A stretch of 63,766 nt of DNA, the filler included, from Craspedostauros australis (lineage: Eukaryota), in assembly GCA_030167865.1 (NCBI GenBank). It is 21 parts of 21 records of this genome, joined end to end, with 100 filler letters (N's around TTAATTAATTAA, not from the genome) between each part and the next. Parts side by side here need not be neighbours in the genome. Positions count along the whole stretch, not along the records: positions 1 to 2,572 come from JALAGF010005053.1; 20 more parts are not named here. The stretch is one strand, 5' to 3'. Positions 1 to 2,572 of this stretch are shown one piece after another (position 1 is the stretch's first letter; every line of letters begins with the position of its first letter). The notes below the pieces were generated by a model. It made no database searches. It was not told where the DNA came from and was given only the letters and a program-made list of their open reading frames with translations. A program made the position numbers and the translations under genes.

Positions 1-2572
1 CTCTTCGCTTCCGGTGTTTGACGCGTTGCCGTCCTTGGCGTTGCTCCCTTCCGTCCGATGGTTGTGAAGCCGTCTGCGTCCGTTATTCCTGTTTCATTGG
101 ATATGTTCGGTGCTGGTGCCCAGCCACGGAACTGTCCATATGATTGGTTGAGCCACTTGATGTCACGTGAACAGATGAGTGACTTTGTCGATGGTCTGTA
201 CATGTTATAGACTCCTGATGCGTGTTGGTGTGCATATCCGATGAACACCATCTCTTCTCCTCTGTTCTTGAGNNNNNNNNNNNNNNNNNNNNNNNNNNNN
301 NNNNNNNNNNNNNNNNNNNNNNNNNNNNNNNNNNNNNNNNNNNNNNNNNNNNNNNNNNNNNNNNNNNNNNNNNNNNNNNNNNNNNNNNNNNNNNNNNNNN
401 NNNNNNNNNNNNNNNGCAGTGCTAGCAGCCGCTGCCCACAGGCCATGCCTATACTCTTCGTCAAGCTGTGCTCCGTTGAGCATGGAGCGGACTTTGGTGT
501 AGAGGTACGCGAACTTGCGTTCTACTCTGCCATTCTGTTGCGGCGTNNNNNNNNNNNNNNNNNNNNNNNNNNNNNNNNNNNNNNNNNNNNNNNNNNNNNN
601 NNNNNNNNNNNNNNNNNNNNNNNNNNNNNNNNNNNNNNNNNNNNNNNNNNNNNNNNNNNNNNNNNNNNNNNNNNNNNNNNNNNNNNNNNNNNNNNNNNNN
701 NNNNNNNNNNNNNNNNNNNNNNNNNNNNNNNNNNNNNNNNNNNNNNNNNNNNNNNNNNNNNNNNNNNNNNNNNNNNNNNNNTCTCCGAAGCTTATGTGTT
801 TAGTGTAACTAATGTCAATGAAGAGCCGTTCGCCTCGGCGAGTCGCTCTTGGAATGGTTGCCTTCGGAATATTCTTCACTCTTGCGTTCGCGACCGCGCA
901 ATCGCGACATACCGGCATCTCGCCGATAATCTTCCATCCGTACTGAGCGGCCGTCCGCTTCATGGTTTCGAGTGGCGCGTGCCCGAGCATTCGGTGCAGG
1001 TTCACCGCGCTGATCTCCTTGGATGGATTCTTGACGATGGCTGTNNNNNNNNNNNNNNNNNNNNNNNNNNNNNNNNNNNNNNNNNNNNNNNNNNNNNNNN
1101 NNNNNNNNNNNNNNNNNNNNNNNNNNNNNNNNNNNNNNNNNNNNNNNNNNNNNTTGATGATGTCCATCAGAATGCCGTTGTTACCAAGCTGGTAACCGTT
1201 GTACAGAGCCTTGTTCGTTGAGAAAAGGTTCACCGCCATCTTGGGTGTGTACTTCACATCATCGAGCCGGATGATGTGGCCAGTGTTGTCTCGCTGTTTG
1301 ACCTTCAAGCGAATGGATCCCATCTTGGGAGAGTCTAGCTTTGTGCTGTCTCCCACTTGGACGAAGGACTTGATGTGCCGCACGTTGAANNNNNNNNNNN
1401 NNNNNNNNNNNNNNNNNNNNNNNNNNNNNNNNNNNNNNNNNNNNNNNNNNNNNNNNNNNNNNNNNNNNNNNNNNNNNNNNNNNNNNNNNNNNNNNNNNNN
1501 NNNNNNNNNNNNNNNNNNNNNNNNNNNNNNNNNNNNNNNNNNGTCTTCGTGGACTCCATCTTCGTTGTATGGATGATGATGGTCTCCGTCATCCATGTCG
1601 TCGGGTAGTTGCGCGTAGTCCGATGGAATAGTGCTGTTTCGATGTGATCCTGTGGCTGGATCGTATGGGTGGACGCGTGGTCGTTCGCGTAAGAGTACGC
1701 GCATACATCCTCCAAGGATGTAATGTAGATCCGTCTCTGGGATCGTTTCCGAGTCGTTCCCTTCCAGTATGCGATTGATCACAACCGAATTGGTCAGAAT
1801 CTCTTCGATCGATCTGAAGTTCTCGGATAGGATCGATCCCATCATGTTCACCCATATNGGTCTNAGCACTCCTTGTGCGACTCCTGGGAACAGNCTCACT
1901 CCTGCTTCCATCACTGCATCGAAGATGAGTTGCTTCTGGATCACCAATGCTGTTTCTGTTGCATATGGGACGGTGTCATGACGATGGAGGTAATTGGACC
2001 TGTTGGGATCATCGATTGGTGGGAAGTCGATATTCCCTGGGTAGACGACACGCTTGTTTGGATTGAAGCTGTCGTCTGGATGATTGCCGTTCTCGGATTC
2101 GTCGCTGTCATCCTCGTCGAAGATGCCCGATCTGTTGTTCCCCGCTGCTGGAGGAGGAGGCGCCGCGGCGCGGTTCGCCTCGTCGTCTTCATCTGCGCCG
2201 TTCTCGTCGGCGTCGTCGTCGTCGTCATCGCTCATGGCCTCTTCGATGTCGCTATCGTTGGCCTCGTCCATCTCAGCTTCGTCGCCGTATGAACCGATCA
2301 GGTCGTGCGCGTTGAANNNNNNNNNNNNNNNNNNNNNNNNNNNNNNNNNNNNNNNNNNNNNNNNNNNNNNNNNNNNNNNNNNNNNNNNNNNNNNNNNNNN
2401 NNNNNNNACTTCGTCGTCACTCCCGACGTATTCGAAGTTATCGAAGAAGGAGTCTTCGATGTAGTCGTCGGACACCAACATGCAGAGCGGCATGTCCTTC
2501 GCAGAGAGTACCATCTCGTGCCCGCTCTTGTCGTGTCCTTGCGTTGCTGTGTTGGCCTGTTCGTCGGCCTTC
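1..2572 (-). mobile_element. Ty1/copia family A, copy 1: polyprotein fragment (extra domain, protease C-part, GAG-pre-integrase, integrase)
   Basis: Motifs LHRMLGH...CRDC, LFIDIS, TPQQNGRVERKF and LWAAA; integrase directly after protease is the Copia order; near-identical to 22101-26911. Confidence 0.93.

Follow-up and report, generated by a model that had tools for sequence, protein, structure and literature searches.

A helical domain of predicted SAM/HhH-like fold between nucleocapsid and protease in Copia retrotransposons of the diatom Craspedostauros australis

Copia retrotransposons of the diatom Craspedostauros australis, in two families that we call A and B and a rare third one, C, carry a helical domain inserted between the CCHC knuckles of the nucleocapsid and the protease. 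That this domain is real and selected is almost certain. The proposal of the preliminary description, i.e., an accessory domain that folds, is under selection, and keeps its place in the polyprotein, is borne out by structure models, an indel-free core and the ratio of nonsynonymous to synonymous changes (dN/dS) within classes of closely related copies.

The window, i.e., the whole 63,766-nucleotide stretch of C. australis DNA analyzed here, contains three family A blocks and two family B blocks, and all five were found in frame within Copia Gag-Pol open reading frames (ORFs), at the places between nucleocapsid and protease given in the preliminary description; this position is kept genome-wide. 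Pfam searches placed Gag, knuckles, protease, and GAG-pre-integrase around the blocks and zero families on the blocks themselves. One A element is a single 2062-aa ORF with Gag, knuckles, protease (PR), integrase (IN), and reverse transcriptase (RT) in this order (Pfam order Retrotran_gag_2, zf-CCHC, Pol_BBD, rve, SH3_retrovirus, and RVT_2), which is the Copia-type order expected of Ty1/copia. The assumed diatom host agrees with a silicon transporter gene fragment at 60927-61445 (+) of the window (Pfam Silic_transp, E 1e-92).

The family A block used for modeling, copy 3, lies at 24886-25320 (-), with its helical core at ~24937-25212, between upstream tandem CCHC knuckles at 25930-26115 (-) and a downstream protease at 24325-24702 (-). 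Two junction-like motifs, both putative cleavage sites, bracket this block, one at 25828-25848 (-), 27 aa past the last knuckle, and the other at 24751-24771 (-), 25 aa ahead of the protease motif. Copy 2 at 3633-4064 (-), with a core at ~3681-3956, has its tandem CCHC knuckles at 4593-4796 (-) and its protease at 3072-3449 (-). Copy 1 lies at 1633-2064 (-), with core limits (~1681-1956) taken from the AlphaFold model of a sister A copy. Only the C-terminal part of its protease is visible, at 1153-1392 (-), with the catalytic motif hidden by an N gap at 1390-1542, and its knuckles fall beyond the contig end, so the placement of this copy between knuckles and protease rests on the sister copies. 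Upstream of copy 1, a putative Gag/protease-junction-like motif and candidate cleavage site at 2497-2517 (-) is the same motif found at +27 past the last knuckle in sister A copies. The first ~94 aa past the A knuckles (25650-25850 (-) and its sisters) share 89-95% identity between closely related A elements, which exceeds the conservation of the domain itself, and can still be recognized in divergent A subfamilies; this stretch may be another small conserved motif region.

Family B copy 2 spans 58516-59034 (+) and comprises a Cys4 finger at 58537-58590 (+) and the modeled helical core, predicted to be SAM/HhH-like, at 58744-59010 (+). In B copy 1 at 31668-32153 (-), with a core at ~31701-31967 and a downstream protease at 31143-31511 (-), an N gap covers the first half of the finger. 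A decayed sixth copy of the domain (17637-17732), overlooked in the preliminary description, is part of a B domain fragment beside an integrase C-terminal part at 17487-17732 (-). The element at this place is a multi-copy, non-autonomous B deletion derivative (also at loci L264, L267-L270, and L272) that is devoid of protease and most of the integrase, with the end of the domain joined straight to the integrase C-terminal part; both its domain and its finger show decay, and several copies contain stops. Elsewhere in the window, a separate, unrelated Copia family at 37012-38538 (-) shows GAG-pre-integrase and integrase, with no obvious catalytic protease motif within the translated stretch; an AT-rich 338-aa ORF at 10741-11757 (-) is plastid-like by composition; and His/Ser-rich tandem decapeptide-like repeats precede a transposase-like segment at 42987-43950 (+).

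When the 65.9-Mb assembly (6734 contigs) was searched, families A and B each gave at least 154 matches. Among 50 loci per family, a knuckle was present upstream in the same open frame, 134-317 aa away, in 24 for A and 30 for B, and a protease motif was present downstream, 42-85 aa away, in 31 and 37, respectively; where either motif is lacking, the locus may end at a contig border, contain an N gap or a stop, or have been missed by the strict motif. The helical core of ~90 aa is indel-free, with a gap fraction of 0.000-0.002 compared to 0.05-0.25 in the linkers (11 elements per family). Inside allele classes, Nei-Gojobori dN/dS of the core was 0.18 (25 copies), 0.17 (7 copies), and 0.24 (11 copies), with codon bootstrap values of 0.10-0.34, against 0.27-0.40 in the immediate flanks, the intervals overlapping in part; in one pair, the cores were 96% identical despite a silent divergence of 0.40. 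Within allele classes, the core is under purifying selection. When all subfamilies were compared, the core had a dN/dS of 0.31 in A and 0.38 in B, with 0.23-0.40 in the linkers and 0.14-0.17 in the protease, and no other part of Gag-protease diverges as much as the block from one subfamily to another. The comparison of block and linkers envisaged in the preliminary description thus came out with lower values for the block within allele classes but no lower ones across subfamilies.

A and B were each modeled on their own with AlphaFold. The B model, from 15 sequences, reached a pLDDT of 85.9 and a pTM of 0.83, and the A model, from 33 sequences, a pLDDT of 70.1 overall and mostly 77-89 over residues 41-120; these values rule out a prediction of disorder. 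Given the within-class dN/dS and these confident models, neutral and disordered readings of the block fail, although the block is still not plainly more conserved than the linkers. The order of the helices agrees between A (37-58, 68-82, 86-102, and 110-128) and B (77-96, 105-114, 120-136, and 144-161).

Both cores were aligned exhaustively against 48,161 chains, and the top 50 structural matches were compared; 14 of these were common to both cores and covered the same ranges of the targets. For the two models, NusA AR1 (1u9l) scored Z 6.4/6.1 (rmsd 2.3/2.4, 67 residues aligned), Pol X (3au2) 6.7/4.8, AF1548 (1y88) 5.2/7.2, and the LEAFY SAM domain 5.4/5.3; tankyrase SAM and DisA were further shared matches, and RAD51/RadA N-lobes ranked high for B. 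The small five-helix bundle of SAM was matched in several domains at Z 4.9-5.9, tied with non-SAM folds, and the paired helix-hairpin-helix (HhH) fold of the RAD51 N-lobe and Pol X at a middling Z 5.9-6.7; all Z scores are below 8, a range where small helical domains commonly match each other. Compared to NusA AR1/AR2, the RAD51/RadA N-lobe, Pol X, the AF1548 C-terminal domain, and SAM, the A and B domains superimpose with an rmsd of 2-3 Å over 58-72 residues but are only 5-17% identical, give no profile match, and have longer first and last helices. These models make a SAM/HhH-like fold class probable for both cores, with no function implied. The earlier guess of such a fold is therefore in line with both separate models, at middling Z scores of 5-7, while the IGV pattern that had suggested it is absent from A.

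Other searches returned little. Foldseek, which the preliminary description had recommended for the AlphaFold models, gave no match at E ≤ 0.001 in PDB and BFVD, the SAM/HhH-like matches coming from the exhaustive aligner instead, and Foldseek rows for PHD-bromo and bromodomain chains were rejected (TM 0.2-0.35, rmsd 8-15 Å). In the ESM Atlas, nothing was found for A and only borderline, unnamed phage clusters for B. The domain matched none of the entries of Pfam, NCBIfam, or the PDB sequences, and SAM family profiles matched 0/15 B and 0/17 A members at E ≤ 1. The consensus of DNA-binding HhH domains is a Gly-hydrophobic-Gly hairpin. No such conserved hairpin was seen in the A, B, or C alignments; B, C, and A3 retain the hairpin glycine, which the main A class lacks, and the second hairpin of HhH domains is not visible in A or B. 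The net charge of the cores is negative in 14 of 17 A/C and 12 of 15 B members (26/32), and this acidity argues against plain HhH DNA binding.

Are the A, B, and C domains one family? BLASTP of A against B gave no significant match (E 0.64 and 54), and the A-B profile comparison gave a probability of 4-9% over a segment of 21-36 columns. This segment contains the N-x2-LE stretch, so that, among the motifs read by eye as shared, N-x2-LE is recovered by profile but not by BLASTP, and FDAV holds for one of the two B copies in the window, the other reading CCDAA. When the A+C core was compared with the B core, the local score of 20.2 was reached by 0/300 column shuffles (reversed, 13.8), whereas the global alignment score was matched by 17/300; cross-profile scores lay above 97% of shuffles for 11/17 A/C cores and 4/15 B cores. 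The cores of the families are less than 30% alike. Sampling of 20 protease loci outside the first A and B lists uncovered divergent A subfamilies and the rare family C, which combines a B-like hairpin with an A-like following helix and matches the A profile with a probability of 86% (E 5.5e-6) and the B profile weakly. A protease-plus-integrase tree joined A, B, and C in one clade (SH-aLRT 98) apart from 31 domain-free metagenome relatives; this was a quick tree without bootstrap, of 50 rows, 7 rows having been dropped as incomplete, and origin from one host may alone group A, B, and C regardless of the domain. Altogether, the common origin that had been proposed for the A and B domains is probable, favored by the core profile shuffles and the tree, although its sequence support is weak, as the profile probability of 4-9% makes plain.

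Family B differs from A in the finger that precedes the helical domain, a feature overlooked in the preliminary description. Its pattern is W-C-x2-C-x3-G-x5-C-x2-C, with the Trp, the four Cys, and the Gly invariant in 15/15 aligned members, and the finger-plus-helix part is neutral to basic in 13/15. The RanBP2/NZF consensus is W-x-C-x2-C-x3-N-x6-C-x2-C, and identity with this class was rejected, as both the spacing and the Gly differ; among Pfam finger families, there was no match beyond one member at E 0.73. A JGI metagenome Copia protein, P0013, which is 39% identical in its best protease-side segment, has, after its knuckles, a Cys4 motif that matches the B finger in spacing and in its Gly-Pro; the chance expectation from composition is ~2e-7, for a pattern chosen after it had been seen. 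The helical block of P0013 was rejected as a core homolog since 177/1000 shuffles scored as high. In the same protein, protease and GAG-pre-integrase are separated by a long insertion at residues ~800-950.

Searches beyond this genome recovered no homolog of the helical core from libraries that are thin in eukaryotic transposon proteins, and these negatives are no evidence of absence from other diatoms. The B profile had two hits among 1.84 billion representatives, both rejected as unrelated repeat proteins matched in short Cys or low-complexity stretches. The A alignment matched 0/7998 candidates among longer proteins and the A region 0/252; none of the viral contigs searched contained the domain; and the A, B, and merged profiles had no significant hit in 77 related metagenome loci. 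In 36 of these loci both knuckle and protease are visible, so that the spacer is measurable, and the domain was present in none of the 36. Their spacers, ranging from 29 to 476 aa, were of ≤66 aa in 19, 81-103 aa in 7, and 122-476 aa in 10, which marks the knuckle-protease spacer as an expansion hotspot in this clade. The short linker described as canonical thus holds for 19/36 relatives, while 10/36 have long spacers devoid of the domain; and the wider claim of conservation across diatom Copia in general was not upheld, no core homolog having turned up beyond this genome in the libraries searched and the block being the most divergent Gag-protease part. Three metagenome relatives (L156:1165-2161, L157, and L164) have knuckle-protease spacers of 303-332 aa, one with a Cys/His cluster, and these are unrelated to A or B by profile.

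An acidic-x-small-hydrophobic motif, seeded by eye, was present shortly ahead of the protease in 17/18 short-spacer relatives. A like motif occurs in the majority of the scanned elements of A, B, and C, both at +24 to +32 aa past the knuckles and 24-28 aa ahead of the protease; 12 of 13 elements could be scored, both sites ranked among the top four in 10, and the motif also scored inside the domain in 6/12. From the position of these two bracketing motifs, the domain is probably cut out by the protease of the element. The Ty1 protease is described as cutting at Gag/PR, PR/IN, and IN/RT, and the Ty1 sites, as given in the accessible text, do not resemble the junction-like motif in detail (PMC6952103). 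One B spacer, at 32700-32920 (-), contains three tandem junction-like motifs followed by a short Met-Trp-x-Pro segment, with a duplicated motif just ahead of the protease; the B spacer seems to grow by duplicating the junction-like site.

The family A core falls into discrete classes. Between classes a and b, the cores are 58% identical with a divergence of 0.47 at 4-fold sites, whereas the proteases are 92% identical with a 4-fold divergence of 0.14, equal to the within-class values; this comparison used 18 of 50 loci and 70 pairs from 17 elements, the pairs not being independent. All seven class-b copies carry ordinary proteases. In two contigs free of N gaps, the capsid (93%), knuckles (99%), protease (93%), and integrase (93%) are nearly alike, while the cores are 59% identical; a tract of ~750 nt over the domain and near linkers falls to 63-73% nucleotide identity, compared to 84-98% outside the tract and ≥90% in all but the last three bins. 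One B pair has a similar tract (integrase 97%, core 69%) that extends into the protease, in contigs with N gaps. Repeat assemblies can be chimeric, a caution that applies to the single contigs. Topology tests gave an asymmetric result, with the core rejecting the flank tree (p-AU 0.029) and the flanks not rejecting the core tree (p-AU 0.061). This pattern is that of a domain apparently exchanged as a cassette by recombination between copies, for which we infer template switching during reverse transcription as the route.

Our leading explanation, held tentatively, is that A, B, and the rare C form one Copia lineage whose ancestor would have gained a SAM/HhH-like domain in the acidic knuckle-protease spacer, B keeping the Cys4 finger ahead of it. 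The domain is made in frame within the Gag-Pol polyprotein; the protease of the element would then release it as a small, mostly acidic accessory protein, which might act as a protein-binding specificity module that engages a host factor and thereby either tethers the particle or pre-integration complex or counteracts host defense. Protein binding is suggested by the mostly acidic cores and the lack of a clear DNA-binding hairpin, and a host partner is favored over self-recognition and nucleic acid binding because maintained alleles suggest specificity; that the domain binds a host protein is plausible at about the same tentative level as the explanation as a whole. Old discrete alleles, each purified by selection, would be shuffled onto a shared backbone by recombination. 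It is possible, though doubtful, that the domain is an effector whose ancient alleles are under balancing selection and cassette-swapped in two families, each allele with its own host target, such as an integration tether or a silencing factor, with a finger-plus-helix version existing beyond this genome.

By analogy with Ty1 copy number control, the domain could instead recognize itself or the Gag of its own element, so that it nucleates particles or restricts sister elements and its alleles serve as compatibility types. SAM domains are among the matches of both models, and the allele exchange parallels Ty1 and Ty1', in which a divergent gag sets restriction (PMC7055915, as far as its accessible text goes); but the failure of SAM profiles in the 15 B and 17 A members, together with NusA repeats, the RAD51 N-lobe, and Pol X scoring equal to or above SAM, leaves self-recognition unlikely. 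An HhH module that binds nucleic acid or nucleosomal DNA and aids packaging, reverse transcription, or target capture would account for the matches to HhH domains of RAD51, Pol X, DisA, and helicases and for the neutral to basic finger-plus-helix part of B, and the RAD51 N-lobe is described as binding nucleosomal DNA via Lys64/Lys70 (PMC10990931, in the text available); the fold search aligns the cores with this lobe by range rather than residue by residue. The acidic cores, the hairpin glycine missing from the main A class, and the invisibility of a second Gly-hydrophobic-Gly hairpin all weigh against this role, and sequence-independent DNA binding would leave the maintained alleles unexplained, so we regard it as quite improbable.

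Two further alternatives concern the origin of the block and its need for any function. The weak A-B sequence signal and the great length variation of the spacer among relatives would fit unrelated small helical domains captured independently into the same insertion-prone place; yet A and B share helix order and structural matches over the same ranges, are sister families in the tree, and are bridged by the mixed hairpin and helix of C, which makes separate captures rather improbable. A structural spacer that does little by itself, folded to spare the polyprotein and with alleles as neutral relics of the mixing of old lineages, would explain why across-class core dN/dS equals that of the linkers, why the divergent tract includes neighboring linker sequence, and why half of the relatives have no insert. 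It is very improbable in view of the within-class dN/dS of ~0.17-0.24, the pair with conserved cores at high silent divergence, the invariant Cys4 finger common to a distant element, and the retention of the domain across families with such dissimilar cores.

Known systems resemble parts of this arrangement. Small Gag-derived cleavage peptides such as MLV p12 and HIV p6 bind chromatin or host proteins and are largely unfolded, acting through short motifs. Unlike these peptides, the A/B domain is a predicted folded unit of ~90 aa in Copia. The diatom Ty1/copia elements CoDi6.2-6.5 (Maumus et al. 2009) have tandem CCHC knuckles in Gag, as A and B do, and PR-IN-RT-RH order, but the accessible text names only knuckles in that region (PMC2806351); this comparison was made by description. 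The CoDi-A integrase (Llorens et al. 2009) has a C-terminal chromodomain proposed to touch chromatin, which is likewise a diatom Copia accessory module but, as described in the text available, of a different fold and at the integrase C-terminus (PMC2774666). No chromodomain family matched residues 1-1824 of one A element at E ≤ 0.5. In Ty1/Ty1' (Czaja et al. 2020), recombined gag variants set restriction and copy number control, and, as with our alleles, recombination carried a divergent segment on the Gag side from one subfamily to another; the variable part there, according to the accessible text, is the capsid, whereas in A a separate domain varies and the capsid, knuckles, protease, and integrase are alike (PMC7055915). 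Contacts with nucleosomal DNA and the H4 tail are documented for the RAD51 N-lobe fold (PMC10990931, accessible text). For plant elements, the accessible part of Neumann 2019 lists aRH and chromodomains (PMC6317226), and that of a 2025 diatom preprint reports no extra domain (10.1101/2025.10.24.684338). We found no description of the domain in the literature covered; most subscription papers, GyDB, Repbase, and the supplement of PMC2806351 lie outside this scope and may bear on novelty. New here is a Copia variant with an undescribed domain family, the Cys4 finger of B, family C, and the swapped alleles.

Accessory domains of Copia polyproteins are rarely described, and the diatom literature, in its accessible text, names knuckles and an integrase chromodomain (PMC2806351, PMC2774666). 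Alleles whose age at silent sites is about three times that of the adjacent protease point to a part engaged in conflict, either with the host or with sister elements, and they offer a ready-made comparison for finding the partner of the domain in diatoms. The finding may bear on how the abundant diatom Copia elements choose sites or evade silencing; if our tentative reading is true, an LTR retrotransposon would possess a modular system of specificity.
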